A stretch of 60,881 nucleotides of DNA, the filler included, from Hausera hauseri (taxonomy: Eukaryota): the NCBI GenBank assembly GCA_046269625.1. It is 10 parts of 10 records of this genome, joined end to end, with 100 filler letters (N's around TTAATTAATTAA, not from the genome) between each part and the next. Parts side by side here need not be neighbours in the genome. Positions count along the whole stretch, not along the records: positions 25,891 to 30,449 come from JBJURY010528012.1; 9 more parts are not named here. The stretch is one strand, 5' to 3'. Shown one piece after another: positions 5,978 to 39,432 of the stretch (position 1 is the first letter of the stretch; each line of letters opens with the position of its first letter). Position numbers and translations under genes: made by a program. The notes under the pieces are model-generated. The model saw nothing but the letters and a program-made list of their open reading frames with translations, did no database searches and had not been told where the DNA came from.

Positions 5978-8900
5978 AGTCGTCACATATAGACGCCACA
6001 TAGTCGTCATATGTACTCGTCACATGCAGTCTTCACATGTAGTCGTCACATGTAGTCGTCACAGGTAATCTTTACATGTAGTCGTCACATGTAGTCTTCA
6101 CATGCCGTCACATGTAGTCGTCACATGTCGTCATATGTAGTCGTCACATGTAGTCGTCACATATACTTCTCACAAGTAGTCGTCACATGTCGTCGCATGT
6201 AGTCATACATGAAGTCTTCACATGTAGTCGTCACATGTAGTCGGCACATGTAGTATTCACATGTCGTCACATTTTGCCGTCACATGTACTCGTTACATGT
6301 AGTCTTGACATGTTGTCTTCACATGTAATCGTCACATATAGTCGTCACATGTAATCATCATATATAGTCGTCACATATTCGTCATATATTATCGTCACAT
6401 ATAGTCGTCACATATTTGTCACATAGTCATCACATATAGTCTTCATATGTAGACGTCACATGTAGTCGCCACATTTACTCGTCACATGTAGTCGTCACAT
6501 ATAGTCGTCACATGTAGTGGTCACAGTCTTCACATGTAGTCGTCACGTGTAGTCGTCACATGTAGTCGTCACATGTAGTCATCATATATAGTCGTCACAT
6601 ATTCGTCATATTATCGTCACATATAGTCGTCCTAACATGTAGTGGTCACATGTAGTCGACACGTAGTGGTCACATGTAGTCGACACGTAGTGGTCACATG
6701 TAGTGGTCACATACAGTCGTCAGATGTTGTCCTCACATGTAATCTTTACATGTAGTCTTCACGTGTAGTCGTCACATGTAGTCGTCACATGTAGTCGTCA
6801 CATGTAATCGTCGAATTTAGTCGTCACATGTAGTCGTCACATATGGTCGTCATATGTAGTCGTCACATGCAGTCTTCACATGTAGTGGTCACACGTAGTC
6901 GTCACATGTAATCGCCACGCGTAGTCGTCATATGTAGTGGTCACAGTCTTCACATGTAGTCGTCAAATAGTCTTCACATAATCGTCACATGGTCGTCACA
7001 TATATTCGTCATACTTAGTTCGCACGCAGTCGTCACATGTCGTTACATGTAGTCGTCACATGTAGTTCTCACATGTAGTCTTTACATGTCGTCACATGTA
7101 CTCGTCACATGTCGTCACATGTAGTCGTCACATGTACTTGTCACATGTAGTTCTCACATGTAGTCGTCACATGTCGTCACATGTAGTCATCACATGTAGT
7201 CTTCACATGTAGTCGTCACATGTCGTCACATGTAGTCGTCACATATCGTCACATGTGGTCGTCGCATGTAGTCTTCAAATGTAGTCGTCACATGTACTCG
7301 TCACACGTGGTCACATGTAATCGTCACATGTTGTCGTCACATGTAGTTGTTACATATAGTCGTCACATGTAATCGTCACATGTAGTCGTCTCATGTAGTG
7401 GACACATGTAGTCGTCACATGTAGTCTTCGCATGTACTGATCACATGCAGTTGTGATATGTAGTCATCACGTAACCGTTACATATAGTCTTTACATGTAG
7501 TCGTCACATGTAATCGTCACATGTTGTCGTCACATAACCGTCACAATCGGCACATAGTCGTCAGCTATAGTCGTCACGTATAGTCGTCACGTGCAGTTGT
7601 CAAATATATTCGATACATTATCGTCACATAGTCGTCAGTCGTGACATTCGTCACATGTAATCGTCTCATGTAGTCGTCACATAATCGTCACATTATCGTC
7701 ACATACTTATCACATATAGTCGTCACATATTCTTCACATGTAGTCGTCACATGTAGACATCACATGTAGTCGTCACATGTATTCGTCACATGTAGTCGTC
7801 ACATGTAGTCTTCAAATGTAGTCGTCACATGTAGTCGTCACATGTAGCCATTACATGCAGTCATTACACGCAGTCATTACATGTAGTAGTCTCACGTAGT
7901 CGTCACATGTAGTCGTCACATGTAGTCTTCACATGTAATGNNNNNNNNNNNNNNNNNNNNNNNNNNNNNNNNNNNNNNNNNNNNNNNNNNNNNNNNNNNN
8001 NNNNNNNNNNNNNNNNNNNNNNNNNNNNNNNNNNNNNNNNATCACATGCAGTTGTGATATGTAGTCATCACATGTAACCGTTACATGTAGTCTTCACATG
8101 TAGTCGTCACATATTCTCGCCACATATAGTCGTCACATAGCGGTCACATATAGTCGTCGCATATAGTCCTCACATATAGTCGTCACATAATCGGCACACA
8201 TAGTCGTCACCTATAGTCGTCACGTGCAGTTGTCAAACATTCGTTACATTATCGTCACATAGTCGTCAATCGTCACATATTCGTCAAATGTAATCGTCTC
8301 ATGTAGTCGTCAAATAATCGTCACATTATCGTCACATACTTATCACATATAGTCGTCACATATATTCTTCACATGTAGTCGTCACATGTAGACATCACAT
8401 GTAGTCGTCACATGTATTCGTCACATGTAGTCGTGACATGTAGTCGTCACATGTCGTGACATGTAGTCGTCACATGTAGTCGTCACATGTAGTCTTCACA
8501 TGTAATGATCACATGCAGTTGTGATATGTAGTCATCACATGTAACCGTTACATGTAGTCTTCACATGTAGTCGTCACATATTCTAGCCACATATAGTCGT
8601 CACATAATCGTCACATATTCGTTACATATAGCGGTCACATATAGTCGTCGCATATAGTCCTCACATATCGTCGTCACATAATCGGCACATATAGTAGTCA
8701 CATACTCGTCAAGTGCAGTTGTCAAATATATTCGTTACATTATCGTTACATAGTCGTCAGTCTTCAAATATTCGTCGCATGTAATCGTCTCATGTAGTCG
8801 TCACATGTACTCGTTACATGTAGTGTTGACATCTTGTCTTCACATGTAGTCGTCTCATATAGTCATCACATGCATTCATCATATATAGTCGTCTGCTCTT

Positions 8901-14900: not shown

Positions 14901-16313
14901 AGTCTTCACACGGTGTCGTCACATATTCGTCTCATATACTGGACACATGTAGTCATCATATATTATCGTCATATTCGTCATATTATCGTCACATATAGTC
15001 GTCACATATTCGTCACATAGACATTACGTAGTCGTCACATATATTCTTCACATGTAGTCCTCACATGTAGTCGTCACATTTAGTCGTCACATGTGGACTT
15101 CACATGTAGTCATCACATGTAGTCCTCACATGCAGTTGTCACATGTCGTCGAATGTAGTCGTCACGTGTAGTAGTCACATGTAGTCGTCACATGTAATCG
15201 TTACATGTAGTCGTCACATGTCATCACATGTAGTTGTCACATGTCGTCGTCACATGTAGTCGTCACATGTTGTCGTCACATGTAGTCTTCACATGTAGTC
15301 GTCACATGTAATCGTCACATGTAGTTGTAACATGTAGTCGTCAGATGTAATCGTCACAGATAGTCGTCACATGGAGACGTCACATGAAGTCGTCACATGT
15401 CGTGACATGTAGTCGTCACATATAGTCGTCACATGTAGTCGTCAGATGAGATCGTCACATATAGTCGTTACATGCGTCCTCAGATATCATCGTCTCAGGT
15501 AGTCGTTACATGTAGTAGTCACATGTAGTCTTTACATGTAGTCGTCACATTTAATCGTCACATGTAGTCGTTATATGTAGTCGTCAGATGTAATCGTCAC
15601 GTGTAGTCGTCACATGTACTCGTCACATGTAGTCTTCACATGTAGCCGTCACATGTCGTCGCAAATATTCGTCACATATAGTCTTCACATGTAGTCGTCA
15701 TATGTAGTCTTCACGTGTCGTAACATGTAGTCTTCACATATAGTCGTCAGATGCAATCGTCACATGTAGTCGTCGTATGTAGTTGTCACATGTCGTGGTA
15801 ACATGTAGTAGTCTCATGTTGTCGTCAGAAGTAGTCATCACATGTAGTCGCCTCATGTAGTCGTGACATATAGTCGTATCATGTAATCGTCACGTGTAGT
15901 CTTCACACGTACTCGTCACATGTACTGGTCACATTTACTCGTCACATGTAGTTGTCACATGTAGTCTTCTCATGTAGTCATCACATGTAGTTCTCACACG
16001 TAGTTGTCATATGTCGTCGAATGTAGTCGTCACGTGTAGTCGTCACATGTAGTCGTCACTTGTAATCCTTACATGTAGTCGTCACATGTAATCATCACAT
16101 TTACTTGTCACATGTAGCCGTCGCATGTACTCGTCACATGTAGTCGTCTTATGTAGTAGTCATATGTAGTCTTGACATGTAGTCGTCACATGTAGTCGTC
16201 ACATTTGATCGTCACATAGTTGTTACATGCGTCCTCAGATGTAATCGTCACAGGTAGTCGTCACATGTAGTAGTCATATGTAGTCTTGACATGTAGTCGT
16301 CACATGTAGTCGT
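5978..16313. repeat. Satellite, 13-bp consensus CACATGTAGTCGT with 10- and 11-bp variants and higher-order blocks
   Basis: More than 10 kb of continuous tandem units, running to the contig end. Confidence 0.98.
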
Positions 16314-16570: not shown

Positions 16571-16620
16571 TTTATCATAAATTATATTTAACATATCAAA
16601 AGAGGAAAGCAGCAATTTAC

Positions 16621-18664
16621 CTTAGTCGACTCAATGACCATCAACAGGTATCCCTCAGCAATACCCGTCCAATGACGATATTGCAGAGGCACACTAATCT
16701 CCAATGCAACATATCCAGTCCATGGCCACAATACTGTTGAATGTGTTACAGTGACTTTCATTTTATCTCCATTTCTCTGACTCACTGAATAGTATGTTGG
16801 TGGCATAATGAATATGCCAGTAACGGCCATACTATTGACAATTGTTATCTGCAATGTGATATTTTCATAATGGCAGTTGTAATGACTAACATTGACAATG
16901 ACCGGCATTGCAGTACTGTACAATGGCTGGACACTGTATGGCCACATGTACGGATGTTCTGTCAAATCGACATAACTCGGATATGCACTGGCTTGTGGTT
17001 CTGATTCCAGTAATGTCCGATATGCCCCAATGAGATTGAGCATGCCCATCCCCTGTTCGAATATGTTGTTGTCCATATCGGGCAATCGAATTGCACTGGA
17101 CATGAGTGACTGTTTTATACTGGCAGGAGATGTCGGTGGGTTGTTGAGCAATTTCACGGCACTCATCAGCAACGCTACAACGGCAGCCACTGACGGACTG
17201 GCCAGACTCGTGCCGGATAGAGTTTTGCACGACCCGCTGAGACTCGTGCTGACAATCTGACTGCTGTACGTAATGACGTCCGGCTTCACTCGTCCGTATC
17301 CGTCAGGAATCTCCTATGGCTGGATTGAACAGAACAGAATCCATTGTCGTTATCAAACCCATGTCGTCATGCCACGAGACGAGAAACGGGCGACACGTAA
17401 ATTGAAATCCATCCCACCCACGCCGATAACGTCCATCTGATCAGCGGGATTGTTCAACGTACCGTACAACGGCCCATCGTTACCAATTGCCGACACAAGC
17501 AGAATGCCATTGGCCGACAATTCCCAGACTTTCTCGACGAATGGCCGATCCTGGAAATCCGGTCCGCCGATACTCAAATTGATTAGATCGACTCGACGAG
17601 CCATGGCGTAATTAAATGCATCGAGAAACCAGCTCGTGTACGAAGTTTGTTTTCGAGTAAACAAACGGAATATGTACAATTCGACATTTGGGGCAATTCC
17701 TCTCGGACATCGTTCATCGCCGGGATCGCTAACAAACATTCCGGCAACGAATGTCCCGTGGCCAATTGTGTCTTTGACATCTGGCTCATTCGTCCAGTTC
17801 GTACATTCGACAATGTTAGCTGTACGGAAGTGCGGATGATTCTCGTCGATGCCCGTGTCAAATATGCCGACACGAACGCCCTGTCCGCGAATTCCCATAG
17901 ACCACATCATGTCCGCTTGTAGGAAATAGGGAATCTTTGTGGGAAAAAAATAATTCCTTATTACTTTAGAGTTAATTAAAATGAACTCCAACCAATGTTA
18001 AAAACAACAGCTAATTGTTTATTCCATAAATAGTAACGATGTGAGAAATTTAGTTTATTAACTTATGAAAAATAAGTTCATATTTCTACGCATTCTCAAT
18101 ATTTACCCAAAATTAAAAAAACGCCAATTACTAAAAGTTCCACAAAAAATTATCCACAAACCTTATGTCCGTTTGATTTCACATTCCGAAACAACAATGG
18201 CTTCCGATGGGCAATAACGGCATTAACTGTGATACTCTTCACAACCTTATATGACAGCAGTTGTTCACAAATGGCCGATGCATTCTGTCGGACAAACGAC
18301 ACCACTTCAAAGTCACTGAAATCACTGCGTTTGTACGGTCGACTGTCAATGGACCAGCCGTTTCTGTATTGGTCCAGGGAAATTTTCAGGAAAACTAATC
18401 GTTCTCGGTCACTGTAAAATCGTGTGAATTTGACAATATAACCTGTGCAAGTAAAAAATTTTCGGAATTTTATATGAAAGGAATTACTTTCATCAGCACA
18501 TGACCATGCATTGCAGTACAGAATGAACAAAAATCCGATAACTTTTAGTGCATTGTCGATTGGCAATAAATTCTACAATTACGAAACAAAAATATTCAAT
18601 AACAAACATTCACAATAATTAATAAAATAGCTAAAGAAGGTCGGTAGAATACAATTTTGCACAT
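16621..18664 (-). CDS. MBTPS1: Site-1 protease (SKI-1/S1P, subtilase S8), 5' part. Inferred exons 18664-18608 (tentative), 18572-18488, 18442-18162, 17934-17359, 17313-16891, 16848-16621; continues past the contig end
   Basis: Catalytic motifs FDTG, GHGT, GNDG, GTSLASP. Family-specific [64 protein letters not shown]. Prodomain YIVKF..SDFEVV. GT-AG introns restore the frame. Confidence 0.95.
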
Positions 18665-18939
18665 GTTCTATAAACTTTAGTTTGAAATAGAAAATTAGAG
18701 AATAAAATTGTTTAATTTACCAATTCTAGGTTATCTATATAGATAATTTCGGAATTTTAAAACAATTTCATATCCATACATTTATATAGGCTAAATTGAG
18801 CTTTTTGAGATTTTCAGTAATCTTGTGTACTGCTAACAACTTATTTACGAAATTTTACTATTCGAAAATAAAATTTTTTGATAACATTGTTAAATAATTG
18901 TAAACAAGTTATAAAATTTATACAAGGTCAGCACATACC

Positions 18940-19865
18940 GTAAGTCCAACTATGTTGTTCATTATCGGCTCTTACAGTTGTACATCGAGTTAGGCGCTAT
19001 AGTTGAAAAGGTACATCGGGCTGTTGAGTTTGACCAGGGATATGTTTTTAAGGACTATATCGAACTAAATACTGCTAAGAGGGTTGCAGCAAATAATCCT
19101 TTTGAAAAAGATTTTAAGCTAAAGAAAAACAGCTTATATGGCAAACTGTCGAAAATTTGCTGAACATGTCAAACCTAAGACTGTATTAATCCTAAAAGGC
19201 TAGTTACATATGCTTGTAAGGCCCAGTTTAAAGAGAGCATTATCATCGCCGATGATCTGGTTGCTGTTCTCCTTGATAAAGACATGGTTACATTAGATAG
19301 GCCCTCATACATTAGTCATGCCGTACTTGATCTGTCCAAGTTACGGATGTTTGAGCTAAATTATGTCGACTTAGAGACATATAGGGAACAGTTTAAATGT
19401 GAACTTAATATTATTAAAGGTGAAACAGATAGTTTTATCATCCAATTCCGTGGTGTTGATTTGAGATCACAGCTCCTGCCAGCAATGATAGCAAACAAGC
19501 AGTTAGATACGTCAAACTATGACAAGACTGATCCACTGTACTCGACCCGTTTCGCAGCTGTAATTGGCAAATTTAAAGACGAGAGCAAGGGCTGCGTTCA
19601 GTATCAAGAGGGGATTTTCCTACGGCCGAAATCCTATGCCCTCAAAACCCAAACCAAACCAGTCCTCAAATGCAAGGGCATAAATCTCAAACAGACAAAT
19701 TTGCAGTTTGACAGCTACCTACAGGCTAATGAAACCGGTTGCAGCACCATGGTGAAACAGGAGCGAATTGACAGTAAAAACCACCAACTTATGACAATTA
19801 GCTCAAAAAAGAAAGCACTGGACCCGTTTGACGACAAACGCTAGTGGATTGAGAAAAACCGGAGT
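18940..19865 (+). pseudogene. Protein-primed family B DNA polymerase, C-terminal fragment (Polinton/adintovirus-like)
   Basis: KLKKNSLYGK, LDLSKLRM, GETDS (from xDTDS), IGKFKDE, LRPKSY, DPFDDKR. Frameshifted; same family as 37042-39134. Confidence 0.9.
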
Positions 19866-19977
19866 GTATAAATGTACTGTATAAATATGTAAACATTTTC
19901 TTTTAAATATTTTTGTATATGTTTTATCAATAAAAGTCTTAAATCTCTCTTATATTTTATTACTTTGCCTATGTTCC

Positions 19978-20270
19978 AGGGGTGGGAATAGTGAAACCAC
20001 GATCACGCCAGAATGCTTGGTTTTTGGGAGTGGAAAGAGTGAAACCTAATCCGAGCCAAAAATTCCTTTTTTCTAGGGGTTGGGAATATTGAAACCACGA
20101 TCAAGCCAGAATGCTTGGTTTTTGGGAGTGGAAACAGTGAAACCTAATCCGAGCCAGAAATCCCTTTGTTCTAGGGGTTGGGAATATTGAAACCACGATC
20201 AAGCCACAATGCTTTTTTCTAGGGGGTGGGAATAGTGAAACCCAATCCAAGCCACAAATCCCTTTGTTCA
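19978..20270. repeat. 98-bp tandem repeat (two related ~49-bp halves), about 3 copies
   Basis: GAAACCACGATC recurs at 19993, 20091 and 20189, alternating with GAAACC(T/C)AATCC subunits. Confidence 0.9.
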
Positions 20271-20504
20271 CAACCAAAATTTAAACAAAAAATTTTTACG
20301 CACCAAATTAAAATTTTTTAAAGTACTTCGAATCCATACAGTACGCCTGCTTGTGTGTATCATTCTCATGACTGTGTATCACTTTCATGACTGTGTGCCG
20401 CCCATCTCCGCCCTATTCACCGTGTATGTGTGTATCATTTTTTTTCTACCACATGACTCATCACGAACCACTTCTTTCCATGCTTCCCTGGGGCGGGGGT
20501 TGGC

Positions 20505-20792
20505 TTTATGTGTTCCCTTCTACCTACTTCCGCCAGGGCGTACAGCATCTAACAAGAAATCTAAACGTACACTATTTGGTGTTGTTCAAAAATCCCAGTG
20601 ATAAGACAAGCATTTCCTCACAATCCTGCCTACTTAATATATGCATATCATGATGCTATGACAGAGTCGCACGGATACTTGTTCATGGACTTTACACAAC
20701 AGTGTCCCGATGACATGCACGTACGAATAGACATTTTCAATCAGAAAGGTGGTGTATGTGTCTATAAACAAATTCGAAAATTGACGACATGA
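20505..20792 (+). pseudogene. Polinton/adintovirus packaging ATPase (A32/FtsK-like), C-terminal fragment
   Basis: LNVHYLVLFKNPSDK then, after a frameshift, RQAFPHNPAYLIYAYHDAMTESHGYLFMDFTQQCPDDMHVRIDIF, matching the conserved LNxHYxVLFKNPRD...HGYLxxD..R.RTxIF tail. Confidence 0.85.
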
Positions 20793-21282: not shown

Positions 21283-21577
21283 TTTTTGCACACTTGCACA
21301 TGTGCTGCACACTTGCACTGTGCACCAATCCATGCATCTCGATGTGCTGTATCGATTAGAACAAAGTGTTAATCGATTCGATCAATAGTGCACTGTGCAC
21401 CGTCGATAAGTGAAAAATGTGAAAATGTGCATAGCAACAGTGCCTAGCGGCACCGTTGCCAGGCACTTTTCCGATCGATAGTGCACAGTGAGCACTATCG
21501 ATCGGCACATGTTCAAAATCGATTTATCGGCTCCACCCCCACCCCGGGTTGGGTAGAACCGCCATTTTCCTCTTACT
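21283..21577. repeat. End of an unclassified interspersed repeat, homologous to 30550-30892
   Basis: Shared GCACACTTGCACTGTGCACCA...GCATAGCAAC...AAAATCGATTTATCG...GAACCGCCATTTT. It abuts and truncates a gypsy RT. Confidence 0.85.
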
Positions 21578-23600
21578 CTGTGCAGACCCTTCAACGCCAT
21601 ATCGATGCTATTCTTTCTAATTTTCCTTATGCTCATCCTTATACTGATGATATTTTAGTCGTTTCTTCTTCAATCCAACAACACGAGGAACACATCAGAT
21701 CAATATTTAAACGTTTACACCAGCACAACCTACAGATTAATTTCACCAAATATTACTTCTTCCAGAAGCGCATAAATTTCCTTGGTCACATTATTATTTC
21801 CTAACGTCCCTTGCCTCGGCCCCATCGAGTTGAAGCCTTAAAAATGTGCAGCTATCTCGAACATCAAGAATGAGGAGCTTTTGGGGCACTTTACATTTCG
21901 CTCATAAGTATGTTCCGTATTGTTATGAACTATCCGCACCATTTACTCACCTAAGTGGCGATAAAAAGCACCAACCAATAGTATGGACACCTGAACTAGT
22001 AAATAAATTCGACAATCTAAGAGAATTTTTAAAAACAGTTGAAATATTACCTTTTCCCAAGCCTGATGCCCAGGTGATCCTCACTAAAAATGCCTCAACT
22101 ACCGCGGTAGGTGCCGTATTTCATCAAATCCATAAAGGAAAAAACCAGCATTTGGAGTTTTTTTCACGTAAGTTAACACCTCTTAAGACTAGGTACTCAA
22201 CGTTCGACCGAGAGCTATTAGCCATAGTTCTCGCATTAAAACATTGCTCCCATCTACTTACTGCTGGCCACTTTACCATACAGACCGGTCACAAGCCTTT
22301 GATCAGTATAATGGCAATGAAACACACATCACCTCAACAGGAACGACAAATTTCGTACTTTTCAACATTCACTTTTGAAATGAAAATCATTAACGGTGTA
22401 AGTAACTTAGTTGCTGACTTTTTATAAAGGTCAGTTAACTCAATTAACATTAAGCCTATTTTCACACAAAATCAGTTGCAAGAAAACCAGCCACCTTCAG
22501 ACATGCTTAAATCTTTTCAATCTTGCAAAATCAGCGACGGAGTGGCCTTAGACACGTCCAAACCAGGACAGACTAAAATAATTCTAGCTCCTGTCTAGCA
22601 AAAACGCATTTAATAGCCTGCATTCACAACACAATCCTGGTGCTAGGACCACTTCCCGCTTACTTCACCGACAGGTAGTTTAGCCGTCAGTGCGTTCTGA
22701 TGTACAAACGTGGGTTAAGGAGCGTGTGGCTTGCCAGAAACTTAAAACCACCAAGCATTTAAAGCCACCACTATATAATTTCCCTTGCACATTGCATTTC
22801 GAATCCATGCATATAGATCTTGATGGCCCTCTTCCTCCAGACAACAGCCATCAATTCATCTTGACCATGACGGACCTCTCCTCGCAAAGGCCAGAAGCCA
22901 TCCCTTTACGGAACACTAATACGGACACAATTGCCGAAGTTTTCATCTGCACATGGATTATAAGGTTTGGATTCCCTATATTTATCATTACCGATCAAGG
23001 TCCCCAATTAGAATCCAACCTGTTTACATCTCTCGTTAACCGATTGGGATCAGCCATATACACACAACGCCCTATCATCCGCAATCAAATGGACTTCTTG
23101 AAATATTCCATAGAACACTGAAAACGTCGCCAGGAATCCTTGCTGAATCCAACAGTAGTTGGACAATCTTTCTTCCGTTAGTTGTGCTTGGCTGGCGGAA
23201 CACTCAATTCACTTCCACAAAATGCTCACCTACCGAAGCCTTGTTTGGGGCTCCTGTCAGATCATTATTTGAGCTAGCTGCCCTGGGAAATGCACCTACT
23301 GACAAAATGATCCGGGCAGCACAGAATCACTTCGTTGATGTCAACGAAGACTCCTTCTGCAGAATATTACATAATTATAAATTTTATTTACCAGACGATC
23401 TGTACTCTGCTAAGTTCGCTTGGCTAAAGAAGCAGACGCCGTGCGGTTTTCAACCGCGGTATTTGGGGCCCTACAAACTCGTTCACTTGCACTCACACAA
23501 TGCTATTATATGTAAAGACGGCAAGGAACTATCGGGGCATAACGTCAAATCCGCATTCGTCGTAGATGACACCTCCAAATTGAATATCCAACTCCCTTTC
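21578..23600 (+). mobile_element. Ty3/gypsy pol fragment (RT end, RNase H, integrase, GPY module), decayed
   Basis: QRHID..YTDDILV; NASTTAVGAV..FFSRKL..YSTFDRELLAI..TGHKPL; MHIDLDGPLP..PEAIPL..ITDQGPQ; RYLGPYKLV. Same family as 25950-30449. Confidence 0.95.
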
Positions 23601-23869
23601 AAACTCCTTCAACCATTCCTGTTTCTATTTCTGTTTCTGCACCTATTTCACCTTCTGTTTTTTTTCTTTCCCCCTTACAACCTCTATTTCTGCTCTTTCG
23701 CCTATTTCTATTCCTTCCTCTGCCTCTACGCCTATTTCATATTCTATTTCTTTTCCAAATCCTGCTGCAACCTCCACTTCTACTAATCTAACAGTCTTTT
23801 CTTCCTTTTCTTCTGCATCTCCTTCTCCCTTTCCAGATTCGTCTTTTCACGACACAACACCTTACAGGA

Positions 23870-25600
23870 TAATTTTTTTGAAATATCTTAATGATAATGA
23901 TATATTGAAGACTCTTTATAACCTGTTTGACTTAACAAATACAAAAGGTTTATTGATGAGTACAGAGGACAAAACATTTTGTCAAACGCAAAAAGATATT
24001 AAAGGAGAAGTTGGATATATCACTGAAGAAATGTACAAATTCATCCATCCAAAACTCAGATTGCATCACAACTACAACATACTAAAGGCTTACATCAGTT
24101 AACAGAAAGTGTACTACAACATGATTCAGTATCTATAACTGATGAAGATCAGGAGTCATACTGTGAAGAGTATCGGAACCCAAAAGGATAAAGTAATTAA
24201 CAAAATCTTCAACAAGAAAAGTAGTATCTTTTAACGAGAAATGTAAATGTTAGCACCAGGAAGGCAGCCAAGATTTGTAAACAACTAAAAGAATCAGGTA
24301 TTAATATTTCTTCATCTTCACAACCTGGAGTATACAGGGTGCAATTAATAAAACGCTCTACGAGCCTAACATAATCTGAAACTTGATTCAGAACCATAAG
24401 GAGCAACAAGACAAAAGAGATGATATAATAAAATTTATTTTGACATGAATATAGAATACAATTGTTCAAAGTGCCCTCCTTCAGCAGTAATTACGGCCTC
24501 AAGACGAGGTCGAAACTTGAAGCAGGTTGTCCTAATGTACTTCTCTGACATGTTGGTCCACTCCTTAATAATGGACTTCTTCAAGCTGTCTGTGCTGGCA
24601 TGGGGATGAGCAGAGGCCTTGGTCTCAACATACTCCCAAGTTGAATAATCCAGGGGATTTAGAGAGCTCGCTGGCCACATTTTTGTACCAGAAATTTTTG
24701 ATGTTTTTCTCAAGCTAATTCTGGACTAAGTTCGAAGTGTGGGCCGGAGCCCCGTCCTGCTGGAACACAGTGTTGGCCTCCTTTGTATAGTTGGAATCAA
24801 TCCAGGGCTTGACATGAACCATCAGAACTTCTTCAGAACCTCCAGATACACTTCCTTGGTCACTTTTATGTTCTTTTTGAAGAAGACCGGATGCATTTTC
24901 TTACCATCACAGGAGACCAGTCCAAACATTATGACTGAGGCCAAATGCTTTGTCTGGAATGTATGTTTAACATTGTCAGGGACATCCTTTGGGTCATCCA
25001 TACTGATGTACCTGTCATTCCGTCTGCTGGCGACACAGTTGACGGTGAACTCCTTCTCATCTGTGAAGAGGATGACAGGCATGCCTCTCTTCAGAATCTG
25101 GAGTAACTTCTTACTTCTTTCCAATCTTGCTTCCTTCTGGTTTGTTGTGATCAGCTGTCTCTTTTTCTTGACCCTTGACTTGGCTTTGAGGTCTTCCTCA
25201 TGGACCTGACTGGCTTCCTCCGGATCTTCTCACGAACGGACTTAATCAGAGCCTTGGTCCGATCTGATCTGGGTCGTCCACTTCCGAGCATTTTTCTGGC
25301 ACTGCCCGTCCCCCTGGTCATAGTGCTCCGGGCACACTTCAAGGCATAGGTAATGTCCTTGTTGGTCATTTCGGCGTGAAACATGAAAAATTGATTGATT
25401 TGAAAGCATTTTTCATATTATTTTTATTCATTGTTTACAAATTAAAGTATAAAGTTCAAAAGTACTATCTTTGAGCCAAAGATGTCTCATTTCGCAGGAA
25501 ATTTAAAACATTTTAAACTTTTATACTAAGCACTTAAAGTAACGGAGCGTTTTTTTAATAGCACCATGTACAAAGCTTTAATAAAAACAGCAGAATTTAC
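23870..25600 (+). mobile_element. Fragment of an unclassified transposase-like ORF, interrupted by the Tc1/mariner element
   Basis: LMSTEDKTFCQTQ..GEVGY and VSTRKAAKICKQLKESGINISSSQPGVY|KALIKTAE; the frame rejoins across the insertion. Confidence 0.5.
24335..25568 (-). mobile_element. Full-length decayed Tc1/mariner transposon, probably DD37D (maT-like)
   Basis: TIRs CAGGGTGCAATTAATAAAACGCTC (24335-24358) and its near reverse complement (25545-25568), TA on both sides. Motifs GSGRPRS, ILFTDEKEF, VFQQDGAPAH, WPASS--LNPLDY. Spacing is 37 after restoring the deleted PD and one frameshift. Confidence 0.93.
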
Positions 25601-25949
25601 GATGTATACACTCCCACAGTATCCTCCTTGTACTTTGAAAAATCCCTCTATTAGTGGATGAACAACTGATTTTTAAATCAAACAAAAACCACGGCAAATT
25701 TAAACACTTACACTGTTCCAAGCCCCAGCTTTTTCTACAAGAAATTCAAAATTGACACATATTTGATCCTTAGGTCGTGGAAACTGTTCANNNNNNNNNN
25801 NNNNNNNNNNNNNNNNNNNNNNNNNNNNNNNNNNTTAATTAATTAANNNNNNNNNNNNNNNNNNNNNNNNNNNNNNNNNNNNNNNNNNNNTTATTTATTT
25901 TTTATTTACAGTTAGAGTTAGAATTTGAAACAGGACAGTTATCCTGTTC

Positions 25950-28900
25950 ATCGTTAACGAAGACTGCTGGCTTAAGATTAAAAATGTGTACATTTTAAGG
26001 TCTATTCTTGCGTAAGATAGTGGCCGTATGCAAAGAAAAGTTGAGTAGTTTATAAGGTCCAGCGCATTGAGGCCGAAAAACCGAAGGCGATGGATCCTTC
26101 AGCCATACAATCTTCGCTGAGTATAAGTCCTCAGGAATATAAGATTTGTTTTTATTTATAACATGGCAAAAGGCATTTGAGTTGATATCAGCAAAGTGGG
26201 ACTGTGCCGCACGATTAACGTCATCTGATGGAGTTTCATTGAGACTGTAGAGCTAAAATAGTGCACGAATTGGTGTCCCAAAGAGAGCTTCAGCTGGAGT
26301 ACAGCCTGTGGTGGTGGATGGTGTGTTGCCAAGTAGAAATGAGGCCCAGCCTCGATTGTTATTTGCCAGAATATTCAGGGAAATTTTCATGGTACTTCGA
26401 AATCTCTCAAGAAGACCATTTACTTGGGGATAATACGGTGTGGTATGAAAGTGGGCTATCCCAAGGGCTTCACCAGAGATATAAAAAGATCAGCTTCAAA
26501 TTGCGAACCCTGGTTCGTTATTATGTGACGTGGTGAACCAAAACGACTGACCCATATTTTGATAAAGGCATCTGCTATTGAGTCGGTATTGATTAATCGT
26601 AGAGGAAGGGCTTCCGGCCAGAGAGAAGCGCGATCCATCATGGAAACGATGTATTGATAGCCGTTGTCGGATGGCAAAGGACCGACAAGATCCAAATGCA
26701 CAGTGTCAAAACGGGACGTACAAGGGAAGTGGTAAATTGGTGGCTTGAGGTGTTTATGGACCTTGTATTGCTGGCATGCTGCACATCTTTTAACCCAGAT
26801 CTGTACATCTGTACGCATAGTTGGCCATACAACGTAGAGTTGCAGTAGACGAAATGTGGCTTTTGAACCCAGATGATGAAGAGAGTGAAAGTAATTAAAA
26901 GCTGTCTTTTGTAGCGATGGAGCAAGAATGATTTTCTTGTTGGTCGAGTTGGAAGTGTCATAAGCGATGCCATTGGTGATTTCAACAGATTTAAAATCCT
27001 GGAGAATAACAGATGATGGGTGCTTGCTTTTCAAGACCTCAGAGGAGAAAATTGGCCGAACTGTAATTGAGTTAACCGACCGTGAAAGAAAATCCGCTAC
27101 TAAATTTTCGGTACCTGAAATATATTTTATGGAAAAACTAAACGTCGACATGTATGATATCTGTCGTTCTTGTCTGGATGAGGGCTGTTTCACAGTCATT
27201 ATGTGAAGTAGAGGCTTATGGTCGGTGTAGATGGTAAATTGACGTGAAAGAAGCAAGTGCTTGAAATGATTTACCGCTAGAACTACAGCTAAGAGTTTAC
27301 GATCGAATGTTGAGTATCGGCTTTCCGGTTGCGTTTGGCTTTGGAAAGGCCAAGATTTCCACAGTTTTCAGACCTTCACGAAGGCGATCAAATTAATTTA
27401 GTAGATCGGGAGTTTAATGGATTAATTGTCTTTTCTTCCATTATGAGATGTATGCGAAATGTGCCGTTAGTTCGCAGCAGTGTGGCACGTATTTTTGAAC
27501 GAAATGCAATATGCCTAGAAAACTCTTCATATCAATAGTAGTAGTTGGCAACGTCACACTTTTTAACTATTGTAAACGATCAGGCTGGGGCGAATGCTCT
27601 TCGGGATTAGTTATGTTGCCTAAGACGTTGACGCGTTTTTGAAGAAATTGCATTTGGCGAAATTAATTTGCAGGTTGCTTTGGAGAAATCTGCAGAAAAT
27701 AATTCTAAGGTGCTCGTGATATTGTTTGATAGAGCTGGAAGCGACTAATATGTCATCTATGTATGGATCAGAAAAATCAAGTCCAGAAAGAACGGTGTCA
27801 ATGTGGCGCTGAAAGGTCCGAAATGCACTACGTAGGCCGAAAGGCATGAAGATGTATTTGTAAGGGTCAAATGGTATGATGGCAGCAGTTTTTGGAATGT
27901 CATCAGGGGCAACAGGAATTTGATGGAAGGCCTTGTGCAGATCAATGGTACAATAGGTATTGGTGTTGTTGAGGCTATGAAGGATATCTTTAATGAGTGG
28001 AGTCTAGAGACAAGAATGAATGAGGCATATCATGAAAGAAAACAGCTCCAGTGATTGACAAAAAACAACTGACATCGCTACTGTCGACGCCTAATTTGGA
28101 TTTTTGTTTTAGAATAGATTTATGATTTTTGTTCATAATTGAAACATTACCGACTTTATCGGGAGTTTTTTTATAGAACACAAGGCGTTCAACATGTTCA
28201 CAGAAGAGTGCAATGAATTGCTCGCTAAGTTGTCTATGAGACACATGCTTCAAGTTGCAATCGAGTTCCTGCTTAATAGACAGCTGTATTTGCAATCTAC
28301 CAATAAATCACATGCGGCAAGAAAATCTGAGCCTATTATGGGAGATTTAATGTTGTCCACGTGGAACTTCCAGACAAGCTTATCTGGCAAGTTTGCTAAT
28401 GTGAAAGTCAGTTCCGTGATTCCTGCAACGTGCAACGGTTGACCACTGGCAATGAAAAGCGGTGGATAGGAAATCATAGTCTATGTAGGAACAAAGGATA
28501 AGGGGAGGAGCGAAAAGACAGCTCCTGAGTTTATAAGGAAGTCGATATATGAAGTATCTCTGCATAACAGTACAGCTTCCAACAAAAAGACAGCAGAGGA
28601 GGTGTTAAAATGGTCAGAAGTTTGAGCAATATTGTTTGCGCCACAATGTTCCATAAAATCTGGCGGCATTTTTAGTTTTTTGAAGTTTTTGGAGAAAAGG
28701 AATAAGAGGAAGAAAAGCGAGGAGATTTATTGTTGTAATGTCTACAACCGGGAACGCATGATCTAGCCTGTGACTGGAACTTATTTTGGTAGACACAAAT
28801 AGGGTTGTTCATAGCGTACCGTTCGCTGTACAACCGACAACCCAAAAAGCATTTCCTAGCATCCCTTCGAAATCGCGTGTGATAGAATCAAGTCATGCGT

Positions 28901-30449
28901 CCGCCGGATAAAATGGATCGAACAGAGTTTCTGGAAATGCTTCTCTCCTTTGAAGGTCTGGTTTCACTTTGTCGAGGCCCACTAAGATTATTTAATTGGG
29001 TAGTAATGGCCGAAATCGACTGTTGTAACTTGTCAAATTGTTGCTGCATCTTTTGCAATTGTTGAATAAAAAATGTTGTTGGAGCACATGTGGTTGCATC
29101 CGCAATAGGGAGAGAACTGTTGGTATGAAAAATCTGAAAGGATTTATCAGCCATTATTGAAGTTTTTTGATAGTAGTGGATTCATCGACAACGGTTAGTA
29201 AGGCTCTGATTGAGGTGGGCAACGATGACAAAAAATAACGGTGAATTATATCCGCGTTATTCGTAGGTGTCACTCCTAGACCAGTATGCTGCAGAATGGC
29301 GTTTTGGAGAAAGTCGGATGGCTTTTGGCTTCCTATCGCGTGGTCGTTAAAATGCTTTTGTATTATACTGTCAATCGAAGGATCCGTGATATGCAGTACA
29401 GCTTCATAGAGTGTCTCGCAAGGTGTCGAGGATTGTAGCAGCTTGGAGATATTACTAATCTGCTACTTGACGTTGGCAGGCAGAAGAATTAAAAGGCTAT
29501 TGGCTCAAGAAAAAGAATCACTAATGTTGTTCGATTTTAGCCACTGTTGATGGAATTGGAGCCATGGTTTGCTGGAATTGTTTTTGTCGAGGAAAAATTC
29601 CATACAAGGTAAATTTAATGAACCTTGTAACTGTTGGAAGTGTGGCAAACGATAGACGTTGCCTGTATTTGTGGGTTCGTCATCCGAGAAGGATGGGTTT
29701 GAATCCGATCCACCTCGAAGGCGAAAATGGAGCACCAAGTGGATAACTGGACGTTTGTGGCATGTGAAAAGCAAAAGGGAGTTGGGAGGATGTGTTATAA
29801 ACCTTTGATATGTGAAATAGAAATCGGAAATATAATATGATGAGGACAAAGCGTTATATAGGCACTGTGCTGTCTCGTTGAGTGGAGCTTTTAAGGTTGT
29901 AATGTGTTGATTGTAGCTAAAGACCAGGAAAGATAACTGTAATGAGGTAATTCCAGGGAAACGATGAAATGCACGTGGGGCTTTGATGGTTACCTTTTGG
30001 GTTAAGAAGCGGTTAGAGCGTACAGCCGGGAAAGTAGTGGTAAGCATTGATTGTAATAAAAGAATATCCTAGATTTTTGAGCTTAAAAGGTTTTCAAAAT
30101 TGAGTTTGGTGTTGGCCATAAAAGATTTGTGAGAGCGCAAAAAATGGTCGTACTGGTGGGCGCAAACAATTGAAAAAAACGTCACACACCTGTGTCCGAA
30201 TGTAGTTTTGCTGAACGCAGTGACAGCATTTTCATTGTAACCAAATATCGACAGTGTGCTTGCAACATGGAATGATTGCGCTAAACCGAAATGTTCACCG
30301 TGTGAACTGATCTGTCTTCGCGGTAAGAGGATATCAGTGTCGGCAATATCGGAGGATATTGGTGGACCCAGATTTTTCTGAGATCGTCCAGCGTTAGTCA
30401 TTCTGCCTTGAACGTCAAAAACTGGCGTAGGTCTTTTATTCATAGCTTT
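25950..30449 (-). mobile_element. Ty3/gypsy retrotransposon, decayed: extended ORF1 (unknown domain, UBL, Gag), PR, RT, RNase H, integrase
   Basis: Gag GSQKPSDFL..YFLSSLP..MADK and knuckle remnant FYHTRFRRDARKC..GC; protease FLINSGAVFSLLP; RT LHKAFHQIPV, MPFGLRSAFRTFQR, YIDDILVASS; RNase H YSTFDRKLLAV..YTDHKPL; integrase HSLHHLG..CAACQ..VHLDLVGPLP..WPEA; AGPYKL. Confidence 0.95.
29709..29936 (-). CDS. Ubiquitin-like domain ending RLRGG, fused in frame upstream of Gag
   Basis: Residues 38-113 of ORF 29505-30047 (76 aa): LSFLVFSYNQHITTLKAPLNETAQCLYNALSSSYYISDFYFTYQ...VIHLVLHFRLRGG, against ubiquitin ...TLHLVLRLRGG. Confidence 0.75.
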
Positions 30450-30549: not shown

Positions 30550-30892
30550 CAGTCAGTAGATTTAAATTCTAACTGCACATTCACACACAACATCAAGTGC
30601 ACTACCGATTGCACCCAATCCCAAACCCTAATGATCGGTTTTTGATTTTTCGAAAATCCAATATTATTGATTTTTGCACACTTGCACTGTGCACCAGTCG
30701 AAGCACCTCGATGTGCTCTATCGATGAACACTTTGTTCCTATCGATTTGATCAGTAGTACACGGTGCAGCGATCGATAAGTAAAAAGTGCAAAGATGTGC
30801 ATAGCAACGGTGCCTAGCGGTCGGCACATGTGCAAAATCGATTTATCGATTATTCCCCGGGGGTGAGACTGAACCGCCATTTTCACACCACT
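30550..30892. repeat. End of an unclassified interspersed repeat, homologous to 21283-21577
   Basis: Shared sequence as above; ends CCACT followed by ATATATAT. Confidence 0.85.
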
Positions 30893-30959: not shown

Positions 30960-33900
30960 CATTTTGGCATCTTTTGATCTTCTAGATCAATTTCATCATT
31001 TCAGCCAGGATTTTTCTGAAGCGGAATAGTTAATCTCAAGGCTTTAGCTTTACCAATATCTTCTTCGTCTTTAGCGACGACTGAACTACAGCGGCAAAGT
31101 AGTTCGTAAAAACGACATTGTGATTCCGGTGAGAATTTAGTATCGACGTGAGGTAGAAATTCGGCACATGTGTAAGGTTTTTCTTCAATTGTTATCGATG
31201 ATACTCTATACGTGTGACTCAAGTTGGTATTGGTGTACAATTTCATTGGGGTCTGTGCATTATTAGCTATTCTGATTGGTACGCGACCAGTTGATATTCT
31301 CGTTAATATATTACTGAGCACAATGCTTGGGTTTAGCGATTGTTTTGGCTCAAAATATACTGGTTTGTCGTCATCTTGACGGATCTGAGCAGATATTAAC
31401 ATTTCGTTTCTGGGTGGAAAATTTTCATCCACTGGGATCCATACTTCTCCATATTTTTTATCTTAAATAGTTTTAACTCCTTTTATCGGACCTAGCTGTA
31501 TTAATTTTACAGCATGAAAGTCTATGGCTACAGTTGGTAGTTGTCATAACAGATCATATCCTAATACTACATCATCCTTTTACTATTCCATTACTAAGAA
31601 TTAGTCATGATTTATCAGCGATATTTCGGATGCTGTGTATATCAGTGCGCATACTTCCCAATCTTCTAACTGAATTTTTGCAAAGGGTCCACCTTCGATT
31701 ACCGTACCATAGTAATTCGGTGATATTTTGGATGTTGAATCGTTGATACATTATACGTATTAATTCTAACTTCTGTTGCTGCAACTGGTTGGTTGATTAA
31801 CTGTCTTAGTTCTCCATTTGGATACGGTTCATTATTCACACAATTGACGATTTCTGTTTCCTGACTTCTAACTTCTGAGTAATTTTCTTGGTTTCTAAAA
31901 GTCTGCATTTCGTGGTCTCTTGAAAATGATGATCGTATTTTGTTCATCCTGAGTATTTTAGGTGAATAAATTATTCCATGGTCGTCAACTGCTGGACGAC
32001 GATACGAAGCAGATGTTCTTTTTGTTCCGTATATTTTCCGTAATACACCGTAGTGTTTTCTTCCTTCATGAGGATTCTCATAGCTAAACGGATTCCTATA
32101 GATATTCGTTTAATATGAACTCAAATGCTTTCTCACAATCCTCATATATAGGCGCAGTTGACGGTAATATTGGTAACGGTGGTTTTATAACGGAATAGTT
32201 TTTATGTCTATTTATCTTGGAAACAGCGTTTCCTCGCTTAAGCTCGTCATTGTCAGACTTATCTCTTCGTGTTTTTATGTGCATGGATTTGCATTTGTAA
32301 TTAAATGTATTTTGCGTTTTACGTTTTCGATTGCAATAACCAACATGTCATTCAACATCCGCTTTCCATATACTTCCCTTGTAAGCTTTTAGAAAGCTTC
32401 TAGTAATAGGCGTCACTAATCTTGGAATATCCTGATATATTACCGGGAATTCTTGGAAGTATTTGTTTTCTTCAACATTAATAGGTACATCTCTTTTTTG
32501 CATTCATAGGTCAATAAAACTTCTCCGGTCACTCGGCCAAAACATCTTCCTTCATTGGAATTATCGGCTATGCTAGCTCGGAATTGGCATATATCAAAGC
32601 CAGTTGAGTTTTTATGATTTTTAAGTCTAATTTACAATCGTTCGTTATCATTTTGTGGTATAGTTAGGTTATTCTGGCTTGTCCTTCATAATAGAAATAA
32701 TCACGTCTATCTTTAGATAATCCTCAATTCGTATATCTTCAGTCTCAGTCTTGAATGTTTTGACATTTATGTCTGTTTCAACTACAAGAAATGCTTCATA
32801 GTTAGTGGCATACATCACAACATCACATCGTGTAAGTACGTCGTTTTTCACAAATTGTAGTGCATGAGTATCGGAAATTAATATAGTAGGTGTACGTTGT
32901 TCAGCTACGTCTTCTCGCGTTTTCGAGTTTGTTTGCATACTATTTACGTAACGTTTTCCTGACGTTTCGTTAAACTTTACTTCTTTAATTTTGCTAAAAT
33001 TGCAATCCGTCTTGGCTGGAGGTTCGCAAATTACTACTGAACTACTAAAAGCACAAGTGCTGTCTTGAATACGGTACTTGTGGTTTTCAGTGTAAAGTTT
33101 AGTAACGCTATGAAACATCACTTTTTGTGTTCGCATCTCGGTTTCATAGAAGTCCACAACCACTATGGTTGATTCTATTCCTTCAACAGTATCATATTCT
33201 GCACCGTCACAGTCTCCGTCATGCAAATCTAATTTCCCTGCTGCTACTTTAAATGCTCAGATTATTTTTCCTTGCTGCATTTCAAGTTCCATGTCATCCA
33301 ATTACAATCTACCTTTTTCTCTAGCTTGCTTACAATGCTGGCGTCTGGAACTCCTACATACTAATCAGTTTTAGACTTTCGCGTGGCTTTTTCTTTTGCT
33401 TCCTCAGTGGTGACTATTGCCACTATACAATTTGTTTCGTCTGGGATAATCCCAATGTCTATTAAGTGTTCCACTTTGTCTAATATTCTACCTGTCTACA
33501 GTCTATAATTCAATTCGTTTCCGCCACCATTGCTTATTAGGCACTGTTTTGCATCTCTTACGGAGGAGTGCGTAGTAAACTTACATTCTTTTTCATCCAT
33601 CCATTCAAAAGATATCCTTACTTTAATCGTCTCTTCGGGTTTAGTCCTTAAGAATTTAGCATACTCCATTATTAAAAGTTTCGGTACTGCACTATAAATT
33701 GCATTTTTACTAGATAATTTAGTCATAGTGGGAACTAACTGTTTTATCTTATTTTCGATGATGCTTACATTAATTAAGTTAATTAAATCTTTTTCAGTTT
33801 GCGCTGAATCCAGAAGCATCTCCATACTGAATCTCCATGTTAAGGGCACGTCTCTGCTTGGTTCAAATATACTGGAGTTTTCGGATTCTCAGCAACCATT

Positions 33901-34586
33901 GCGTCTAAATTCGCATCCCATTCTGGATTGTTTTAATTCTTTCGTGGTAGGTAATTAATTACTGGCATATCCACTGGTCTGACTGCGTTCGTATCACGTA
34001 TCGATTCACTTAGCTCGCGCAACATTTGTTTCATTTTAACCATTTGTGTCATTCGGAAGCAGCATCCATTGCCGGAAGTTTGATGCAATAATGTTAGAAA
34101 CTAGCATAATTCGTAGGCCTGGATCATTTCTTTTTCTTGATAATTAGTTAATTCAGAGCCTACATCTCTTTGCCATTTTCGCACAAATTGTGATTTTTCA
34201 GCAATTTCTGACTCCATAATGGCATAATTATTTCTATAAACTTCCAATTCTTGGGTTGAATCATCTATTTCTGCTTTTCTTTGGTCGGTGAGAATTTGCA
34301 TTTTCCGAATTTTGCATATTCGGGTCTGTAGCTATCTCATTTTTTCATCACTCATTTCGGCCATTTCGACTAACAATAGGACTAACTTCCTTATCTGTTC
34401 TAAGATTTTATAGTCTGGATCGATTTCCGCGATTAGATTCTTTACGATACTCGTTTCTTCAGTGATCTTCCATTATTTCCGTTAATTTGGTTTGCCATTT
34501 CTGATCAATTCCAAGTATCCAATTAGTTGGATTTTGCAAGAAATTTAACTCATCTACAATAGAGTTCTCATGATCTGAACAAATAT
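30960..34586 (-). mobile_element. Env-before-pol Ty3/gypsy-type element, internally deleted copy (coiled-coil region, UBL ~33630-33410, glycoprotein ~33345-32400, linker, protease ~31690-31480, pre-RT spacer)
   Basis: Collinear with 39433-45920. Glycoprotein GDCDG..CAFSSSVVICE..C..C..YATNY..YECKKRDVP..FQEFPV..VTPITR; protease ALIYTASEISLI; ends at the RT start DIGKAK. Confidence 0.88.
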
Positions 34587-37041: not shown

Positions 37042-39134
37042 TTATATTGAGTAATAGTTGTAAGTCACACTCTGATTTTTCTGAAGCCACTTTCTCTTAT
37101 CGTCGAACGGGTCCAATGCCTTCTTTTTGCTGTTTATTGTCATGAGATGATGATGTTTTGTTCCGATACGCTCCTGGTCGACTGCTTTTCCATGACAATT
37201 ATAATAGTCTTGGGGAAAGTTTTCAAAATGTAAACCTGTTTGCTTCAGATTTACGCCTTTACATTTTAATACGGACTTGGTTTGCATTTTCAACGCATAA
37301 CATTTCGGTCTTAGGAAAATTCCTTTTTTGTACTTGACACTGCCTTTGCTTTCATCTTTAAACTTACCTATAACAGCCGAGAAACGAGTGAAATAAAGAG
37401 GGACACTAGTATCATAATTCGACATATCCAATTCTTCATTTAAAATCATAGCAGGTAAGCGTTGTGATCTTAAATCAACTCCACGGCAGTTGAAAAAAAG
37501 CTATCCGTGTCACCAGCAATGATATTTAATTCACAATTAAACTGGTGTCTATACTTACCCAGTTCTGTGTAATTAAGCTCATACATACGTATCTAGGAAA
37601 GATCAAATACGACCTATCTAGTAGCGCTTATCTAGTGTAACTGTGTCCTTATCAAGGAGAACAGCAACAAGATCATCAGCAATAATGATACTTTCTTTGA
37701 ACTGGGCTTTGCTGGCATATGTTACAAGCCTCTTTGCATTGTTACAAAGCCTCAAATTGGACCGTTTCATCAGATTTTCCACTGTTTTTACATATAAACT
37801 GTTATTTTTGAGCTTTAAAAAGTCCTTTTCAAAAGCACTTTTAGCAGCAGCCCTCTTTGCTGTATTAATGCTGATGTAGTCCTTAAATACATTGCCTTGA
37901 TCAAATTCAACGGCACGATGTACCTTGTCAACTACAGCGCCTAACTTGATGTATAGCTGCAAAGGCCTATAGTGTATAACATAGTTGGACTTTCGCTCAT
38001 ATGCAAGCAGCAATTTCTTTTCCCGTGAACCAGGAAAGCATTGATTAATTGGAGCTAAAGGTAGTTGATCTAAATCATAGTGCTTATCAGCCGGAATGCT
38101 CAAATCAATTTCGAAGACGAGACCACGTTTTTGTGTAACAGTGTCTACAAAAGGCAATTGTGAAATCAGACTGTTTAATTTATCTTCATCATAAATCCAA
38201 ACCAAATTTGCAAATGATAAAGGTTGAGATAAAGTCCAACCGTACAAATTATTCACATCTATATACAAGATAGTGATTCTTTAATCGGTGGTAACCCTAA
38301 GCTTTTTTACAAAAGTCATACAGCCACGAATACCAGATTGCAAAAAAACTATATATTTCAGGATCCTGAATATGCTCAATACGACATGGACTCGTTTTTA
38401 GTGCAGTTACCCAAGACAATCCTGGAATATACACGAAATTAACCGTTTCTAATTCATCATCCAACTTAACCTGCTTCTAAATCGTTCAAAAATATTACCT
38501 AAGAAGTATACATCTAGTTTCATATATACTAACATGTAATCTAAAAGCAAGCTACATCTATATCTTGACCAGGTAAGTTGAGCCTCCTGATAATCACTGT
38601 CACTAATACCATCCCATTTCGGTGGTAATTCAGAAATCGATTGCAAGTCAGTAAACGATTTGGCTGCACTGTATGGAAAAACGCCTTTACTTTAATGATA
38701 TCAGATGGAAAAGCTGTTTCAGTGAATGGATAACATTCTAAATTAAAGGCAAATGTCTTCAGTTAAGCAGGTAAAAACTGAGGCATGTCCAAAAAGAGAA
38801 TTGAAACTGCATTTTTACCTGAACATCGTATCATAGTATGCATAGTGATGAATTTTTCCGTAGTTTGTGGAATACCACTTAATTCCCAACTTCCAAATTT
38901 ACTTAATGCGTGTTTTAAAATATGATTGAGATCATATCCACGCAAATTATGGAACATAACACGTAAATTGTACATAATCTGTTGAGCCAAGTTATATTTA
39001 CTACATTCTGGGCCTAGGAATTTACCCGTAACATGAAAGTGATCTCGAACAAATTGAGAACCGTTTTCATGACAGAGGTAACAATATGTGGCGCTTTTAA
39101 ATCGAAACCATTTAGCTGTTGTTAGTGGTATCAT
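37042..39134 (-). pseudogene. Protein-primed family B DNA polymerase (Polinton/adintovirus-like)
   Basis: CYLC..VRDHFHVTGKFLG (EndoVII-like finger), FHNLRGYD, YMKLDV, YIDVNNLYG, KLKNNSLY, AGDTDS, GKFKDE, LRPKCY, DDKR; many disruptions. Confidence 0.93.
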
Positions 39135-39432
39135 TGGCTTCTTTGCATTTTTATATCAAGGGAAAACCATGCTTTTCACAATTTCCTCTAAACAAGTCAG
39201 AAACTCAACGATGGAATTTTCACCAACAAACTATATATATTAAATACCCGGTGATGAAATTAACAAAAGACCGGCTGCAGCAGGCAAATGAATATGCTTG
39301 GCCTTATCATCAGGAAACAAAACAAATTCAAANNNNNNNNNNNNNNNNNNNNNNNNNNNNNNNNNNNNNNNNNNNNTTAATTAATTAANNNNNNNNNNNN
39401 NNNNNNNNNNNNNNNNNNNNNNNNNNNNNNNN

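Follow-up and report, generated by a model that had tools for sequence, protein, structure and literature searches.

Ubiquitin inserts of pestiviruses are cut by cellular hydrolases, and the authentic N-terminus of NS3 is generated in this way (PMC8310069). The ubiquitin-like protein Fubi shares 36% identity with ubiquitin, and few enzymes of the USP type cut it (PMC10611586). According to the same source, USP-type enzymes recognise the Ile44 surface besides the tail, and Fubi is limited to USP16 and USP36 by its own Ile44 surface and tail. Here, we analyse a decayed LTR retrotransposon in which a domain of ubiquitin-like fold (UBL) lies in frame directly before Gag. The reading that we favour, with a probability of roughly 0.7, is that the UBL is a host-deubiquitinase cleavage tag, the predicted function of which is to free Gag from a junk leader.

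The element and its surroundings in the window

The window, i.e., the whole stretch of DNA analysed here (60,881 nucleotides), consists of short contigs strung together with 100-base N-linkers. The UBL-Gag site lies on the minus strand at one end of contig 25891-30449, in a decayed Ty3/gypsy element with the following features:

29949-30449, minus strand: leader of 167 codons in the Gag frame, open up to the contig end apart from one TAG (30069-30071); frame analysis, no conserved domain
29709-29939, minus strand: ubiquitin-like domain (beta-grasp) of about 77 residues, starting without Met; AlphaFold, Foldseek and profile tests
29709-29723, minus strand: RLRGG tail, with a cut predicted after the last Gly that would give a Gag N-terminus of Ser-Asp; sequence and relatives
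28700-29708, minus strand: Gag with a DUF7041-type capsid, a coiled coil and two Cys-His motifs; phmmer E 3e-63 to relative P0002
28250-28726, minus strand: aspartic protease region, decayed; its second half matches relatives just 3' of Gag (tblastn)
27620-28003, minus strand: reverse transcriptase fragment; Pfam RVT_1 E 1.5e-17
25995-27367, minus strand: RNase H and integrase, decayed, with the contig end at 25891 preceding the 3' LTR; Pfam RT_RNaseH, Integrase_H2C2 and rve

The order of protease, reverse transcriptase, RNase H and integrase after gag is that of Ty3/gypsy elements. Stops and frameshifts are scattered through gag-pol, and Gag (28700-29708, minus strand) is interrupted by three stop codons (29505-29507, 29460-29462 and 28888-28890) as well as by a shift of frame near 29160. 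The window protein has no Pfam match of its own, and its assignment as a gypsy-type Gag comes through relatives that match DUF7041. Owing to the contig limits (25891-30449), the window element has neither of its LTRs nor its primer-binding site (PBS); these parts and the polypurine tract lie beyond the contig ends and were found in relatives, and no LTR-like repeat or tRNA gene was detected anywhere in the window. As many as 7720 contigs of run X1 map onto the element, which indicates a high-copy family in that run; the contig depth drops 5' of Gag in run comparisons, and such depth cannot rank the parts of the element.

Several further features were observed in the window. A second decayed gypsy element is located at 21585-23786 (plus strand), with RNase H-integrase DNA about 65% identical to that of the first one and with its gag end beyond its contig, and a further decayed retroelement-like stretch lies at 31000-34580 (minus strand); the frame at 32669-33256 contains cysteines and is viral-glycoprotein-like by eye, with no Pfam match. 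The pieces at 24822-25417 (minus strand), which gave no Pfam match at E<=0.01, are presumably those of a Tc1/mariner-like transposase, as judged by motifs. At 37042-39155 and 18915-20792 there are Polinton-like relics, namely mutually similar fragments of a protein-primed DNA polymerase B (Pfam DNA_pol_B_2) with a piece that is, by motif, a possible packaging ATPase and has no Pfam support. Related palindrome-rich repeats at 21283-21530 and 30660-30850, each at the start of a contig, are possibly a MITE, and a satellite of about 10 kb with a 13-base unit occupies 5950-16300. On a neighbouring contig, the host gene of site-1 protease (MBTPS1; 16588-17997, minus strand) is represented by two long frames close together; it is 57-67% identical to the homologues listed, of which the named ones are from animals, and no close relative is among the matches listed, which makes a divergent animal the probable host.

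A ubiquitin-like fold directly before Gag

The ORF at 29505-30068 (minus strand) reads ...VIHLVLHFRLRGG, then SDSNP..., and then Gag, which confirms the claim of an earlier note on this DNA that a 76-aa domain ending in RLRGG directly precedes Gag in the same frame. The domain is 76-77 residues long, and its RLRGG (29709-29723) is the sole LRGG across the six frames of the whole window. The same note had proposed a ubiquitin-like fold for 29709-29936, and this was recovered with the use of an alignment. The AlphaFold model obtained with a 36-row alignment, one row of which was near-ubiquitin, is a beta-grasp with block pLDDT of 61-87 over residues 11-80 (strands 9-15, 21-27, 48-52, 55-57 and 77-80, helix 32-43). 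The top Foldseek matches of this model are ISG15 and ubiquitin, with TM of 0.69-0.79 to single-domain chains of ISG15, ubiquitin, SUMO and FAT10, and fragments of the BVDV polyprotein were returned as well.

Results of the profile analysis are consistent with the same assignment. The family profile aligns to ubiquitin over the full length, also with the near-ubiquitin member removed (E about 4e-8 versus a single ubiquitin), and profiles from which the window sequence, the two relatives nearest to it and the tail had been left out still score the window above 999-1000 of 1000 shuffles. Pfam ubiquitin is matched by 10 of the 41 protein relatives described below at E<=0.05, two of them above the cut-off. 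Ubiquitin leads the profile matches, Fubi is not among the matches listed for the family profile, and the window tail is RLRGG and not the RXLGG of Fubi.

The bodies of these domains differ considerably, the median identity between them being 15%. Among 33 eroded UBLs the core persists, with Leu or Ile at position 73 in 32, G75 in 32 and G76 in all 33, and the position of Arg72 is occupied by Arg or Lys in 28; Arg42 is left in 2 and Arg74 in 9, and position 44 is Thr, Ser or Cys in 26. The window UBL has Tyr at 42, Thr at 44 and His at 70 and is 15% identical to near-ubiquitin P0027. It is a beta-grasp of about 76 residues with a C-terminal di-glycine and Leu at P4 that lacks the near-invariant sequence of ubiquitin with its Arg42 and Ile44 patch: a domain of the ubiquitin type by fold, and not ubiquitin by sequence.

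Searches that started from the single sequence were blank: the UBL alone matched nothing in Pfam or PDB, its single-sequence AlphaFold model had a pLDDT of 44, and a word-index homolog search with the 187-aa ORF gave no match. These results speak for the view that RLRGG is a chance word in the non-coding leader of a dead copy. This view is refuted by the tail, which recurs in 31 of the 41 related proteins and in 23 of the 25 loci described below, by the ubiquitin profile and by the fold, and is virtually certain to be wrong.

Conservation of the tail and of the Gag start

A phmmer search with the window frame read through the stop as X resulted in the identification of 41 protein relatives, of which 31 contain DUF7041 at E<=0.05 and 13 score higher than the curated cut-off. 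The xxGG tail lies 15-49 residues before the FFLD-type motif of Gag in 31 of the 41, against a background GG rate of one in 156 Gag windows; two of the remaining ten begin within Gag, and in the other eight the 14-65 residues before it contain no GG. Metagenome contigs scanned for the motif yielded 45 loci, including some chance matches and some loci that were too short. In 23 of the 25 distinct DNA loci with a visible Gag start, the tail is in the Gag frame (22 GG, 1 AG), but these counts are not independent: few datasets and, for the most part, a single sub-clade contributed the loci, several of which nearly duplicate one another, and three loci are identical to proteins of the 41-relative set. 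The other two loci are a frameshifted one and L028, which is a canonical element without a UBL; in the decayed copy L041 the tail ends in GC. No relative was found in scans of viral contigs or in the first metagenome scan, and an Atlas search with P0008 returned only DUF7041 clusters below 0.9.

The earlier expectation that RLRGG is conserved while the rest of the domain diverges held for the di-glycine and for the bodies, and not for the complete word. Among the 31 GG-bearing relatives, P4 is Leu or Ile in 30, and P3 is Arg in eight and Leu in ten, so the conserved tail is xLxGG. Within the family of the window, the only change in the RLRGG codons in runs X1 and X2 is a silent third position (among the 40 rows listed). 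The residue that follows the tail also shows a bias: P1' is Ser, Met, Gly, Ala, Thr or Val in 26 of the 31, compared with 84 of 279 at positions P2'-P10', and is never Pro. Asp comes next in 14 relatives, and the predicted Gag start is mostly Ser-Asp. Residues of the P1' type make stable N-termini, and Pro after a di-glycine blocks cleavage. The arrangement in the window is that of a UBL in frame before its partner, with Gly-Gly and then a residue other than proline.

These observations bear on the alternative that the UBL stays on Gag, as a folding aid or a ubiquitin mimic, or that another protease, either the element's own or a UBL-specific one of the host, makes the cut. Fused ubiquitin and Fubi have been proposed as in-cis chaperones (PMC8354635), and the eroded surface may escape ordinary deubiquitinases. 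An uncut domain, however, would need neither the invariant Gly-Gly nor a biased, Pro-free P1', and the capsid would keep an unconserved leader of 100-250 residues, which makes this alternative very unlikely. A tag predicted to be cut by a host deubiquitinase is consistent with both the tail and the P1' bias.

Proposed translation through the LTR, primer-binding site and leader

Upstream of the UBL, the window frame is open for 167 codons up to the contig end at 30449, with the exception of the TAG at 30069-30071, and an ATG is present at 30443. At most one stop was found in 13 of 10000 shuffles of these codons, and there are 7 and 8 stops in the other two frames. Another letter stands at the TAG codon in 11 contigs of run X1, which make up 259 of the 271 depth units there, and the proposal of the earlier note that ORF1 was once continuous across it is supported. 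Only three rows, among those listed, have indels over 29640-30449 (810 bases). The upstream accessory domain that the same note had envisaged did not find support: the window leader has no Pfam match and no similarity to that of the closest relative, P0002, and the relatives have LTR, PBS and leader, probably translated through, in its place. A Met near the UBL start was found in two of 25 proteins.

In 11 loci, the motif TGGTGTCAGAAG, which we take to be a tRNA-Leu PBS, is located 144-497 nt 5' of the UBL. It follows the LTR, the order being polypurine tract, then 306-688 nt, then the motif. The Gag frame in 10 of these loci is stop-free from 36-129 codons inside the 5' LTR through the PBS and leader into the UBL, and between 0 and 54 of 2000 leader shuffles were stop-free in the ten. 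The leaders of the loci with this motif are 70-82% AT and unalignable, and across related loci the PBS falls into each of the three reading frames. Once the last in-frame stop is passed, the first ATG to follow lies within the 5' LTR and is in frame in 10 of 10 cases, and out-of-frame ATGs are common farther 3'. L017 has 682 nt without a stop in the frame that its terminal overlap predicts. A single stop in L012 and one frame switch between two open halves in each of L002 and L022 would be as expected of decayed copies. In seven loci (L004, L006, L015, L029, L030, L037 and L038) the open frame starts at most about 12 bases after an AATAAA or a TATA-like word of the LTR, which suggests that it begins just behind the R region. 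PBS words 5' of the UBL are also present in 10 of 31 proteins of several sub-clades, including the closest relative of the window, some of which may be spliced gene models, versus none in 115,087 control residues.

As judged from these sequences, what precedes the UBL in the relatives is not a conserved accessory domain but LTR, PBS and leader, probably translated through. The leader could nevertheless be a real accessory protein, with the UBL separating two functional products: its frame is kept open for 105-270 codons, the window leader has few indels among the copies listed, and in L011/L037, the only clean pair for dN/dS as most pairs are saturated, the leader value is 0.60 and hence below 1 (UBL 0.44, Gag 0.10). 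Against this stand the identity values of L004 and L038, which are 87% for Gag, 57% for the UBL and 23% for the leader, together with the reading of the PBS in three different frames and the lack of any match of the window leader to a Pfam family or to a relative. We regard an accessory function of the leader as highly improbable, and a disposable leader, removed at the UBL, as the probable state.

Two other observations concern this region. The 825-codon open leader before the UBL in L032 (135-2700; P0030) is contiguous in DNA and contains a cohesin SA-like HEAT piece (Pfam E 9e-6); pieces of host genes are also present in P0002, P0023 and P0029, and all four are either captured cargo or chimeric records. 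The possibility that the UBL region of the window is itself LTR sequence, with a PBS-like word near 29735, was considered and rejected, since the region is homologous to coding UBLs, and these sit 3' of the true PBS in relatives.

Gag phylogeny and probable re-capture of ubiquitin

In a quick Gag tree, a branch with support of 99 sets apart a group of 49 rows that holds the UBL bearers, the window among them, and those of L028 and P0042 lie outside of it. The predicted proteins P0007 and P0025 have no UBL, yet they fall inside this branch. P0025 starts with MVSE, a PBS word, and has its Gag motif after 24 residues; it may represent either UBL loss or the ancestral state. All Gag trees were quick ones, with P0004 and P0035 left out.

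Near-ubiquitin domains are carried by P0027, L023, L029 and L043; that of L043, about 60% identical to P0027, matches ubiquitin over 76 residues with E 2e-32. In the tree, these four have a nested position within the eroded forms. In a test on 30 rows, which was framed after the first Gag tree had been seen, a tree uniting all eroded forms was rejected (p-AU 0.0016), and monophyly of the four near-ubiquitin rows was not (p-AU 0.069). The Gags of L043 and L030 are 82% identical and their UBLs 21%. The simplest reading of this pattern is the replacement, on one or more occasions, of an eroded domain by fresh ubiquitin of the host, which would imply that ordinary ubiquitin is able to do the job of the UBL.

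The same pair bears on the suggestion of the earlier note that the freed UBL is a conjugatable modifier or a decoy. In this alternative the cut occurs, but the released leader-UBL is the purpose, and it would counter host defence as a decoy, by inhibiting deubiquitinases or as a modifier that is conjugated. UBL surfaces evolve fast with the fold kept, as in an arms race, the position of Arg72 is mostly basic, the window family keeps RLRGG among the rows listed, and other transposons carry OTU and Ulp1 domains (PMC2836005). On the other hand, most members are without Arg42, Ile44 and Arg74, there is no other conserved surface, unsaturated pairs have dN/dS values below 1, and the occurrence of near-ubiquitin and eroded forms on sister Gags (L043/L030) makes the surface look exchangeable. 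A function of the freed UBL is, therefore, unlikely, and a role as a cleavage tag is the more probable one.

Proposed mechanism and its significance

The part of the earlier proposal that is retained as the leading mechanism is the release of Gag by a host deubiquitinase; its release from an accessory protein is not. Translation would start at the ATG inside the 5' LTR, and ribosomes would cross the PBS and the leader to produce leader-UBL-Gag (and Gag-Pol). A host deubiquitinase is then predicted to cut after the di-glycine, which would provide Gag with a defined N-terminus regardless of the leader sequence, so that the leader peptide would be disposable and the UBL would substitute for the initiator Met in setting the Gag start. 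Selection would then retain the open frame, the fold and the tail, which matches the observed pattern. As to its origin, the domain was probably host ubiquitin that was captured, eroded to fold and tail, and swapped for fresh ubiquitin at least once.

The main doubt about this mechanism is whether host enzymes cut so divergent a domain: given the dependence of USP-type enzymes on both the Ile44 surface and the tail, a UBL that is 15% identical to ubiquitin and has neither Arg42 nor Ile44 may be a poor substrate. Two further points count against it, namely the interrupted frames of the three PBS-bearing loci L012, L002 and L022 and the placement of P0007 and P0025, without a UBL, inside the clade. 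The broader proposal, to which we give even odds, is that a clade of LTR retrotransposons gave up its own Gag start codon, begins translation within the LTR and continues directly over the PBS, and uses a captured and periodically refreshed ubiquitin as a cleavage tag, with a host protease that recognises nothing but fold and tail acting on the eroded forms. Under this proposal, the sequence-free leader would also be an in-frame slot for captured host sequence, as in L032.

If the proposed mechanism is true, a retroelement lineage relies on a host deubiquitinase for the first maturation step of its capsid, and the host gains a control point over the element. Such dependency is so far on record for recombinant pestiviruses and for the ribosomal fusions of the host, and the literature searched gave no case among LTR elements. 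The clade would offer dozens of natural variants showing how little of ubiquitin its cleavage requires, and the 5' RNA of the element, with its primer site, packaging region and many out-of-frame ATGs, would be freed from the needs of translation initiation.

Comparison with known systems

No prior description of UBL-Gag was found in the literature searched, a scope that most subscription papers, Repbase and supplements fall outside, and the clade of UBL-capped Gags is apparently undescribed so far. Among the known systems close to it are gypsy elements with a DUF7041 Gag (e.g., L028 and P0042), presumably CsRN1-like, which share the Gag fold family and the order protease, reverse transcriptase, RNase H, integrase. 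L028 differs in having another PBS, stops in the leader, an ATG right at Gag and no UBL. Ty1 of yeast is a copia-type element, and its Gag is not known to have a UBL. As in the UBL clade, the PBS of Ty1 lies within the Gag reading frame (PMC4974528), but in the UBL clade any of the three frames may run through it, and the stretch translated there would, as predicted, be discarded.

The 2A-like peptides of non-LTR retrotransposons are likewise borrowed processing modules at a fixed N-terminal position that split an upstream part from the functional protein. They act, however, by ribosome skipping, not by proteolysis, and in ORF2 of LINEs, not in the Gag of an LTR element (PMC3708506).

In Fubi-eS30 and in the ubiquitin-ribosomal protein fusions, an N-terminal di-glycine UBL is removed to mature its partner (PMC10611586 and PMC8354635), as we predict for Gag. 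Fubi is similarly divergent, and its RXLGG tail (PMC10611586) has the Leu at P3 that is also present in 10 of the 31 relatives here. The UBL of these host fusions begins at its own Met, whereas that of the retrotransposons is internal.

The logic of processing also resembles that of cytopathic pestiviruses (BVDV Osloss, CP1 and CP Rit), in which host ubiquitin sits in frame in the polyprotein and hydrolases make the N-terminus of the next protein (PMC8310069), the step predicted here for Gag. According to that source, the pestivirus inserts are strain-specific recombinants with near-intact ubiquitin before NS3. The UBL-Gag arrangement, in contrast, is clade-wide, with the domain placed before Gag and eroded to about 15% identity across Gags as far apart as 25-35%.
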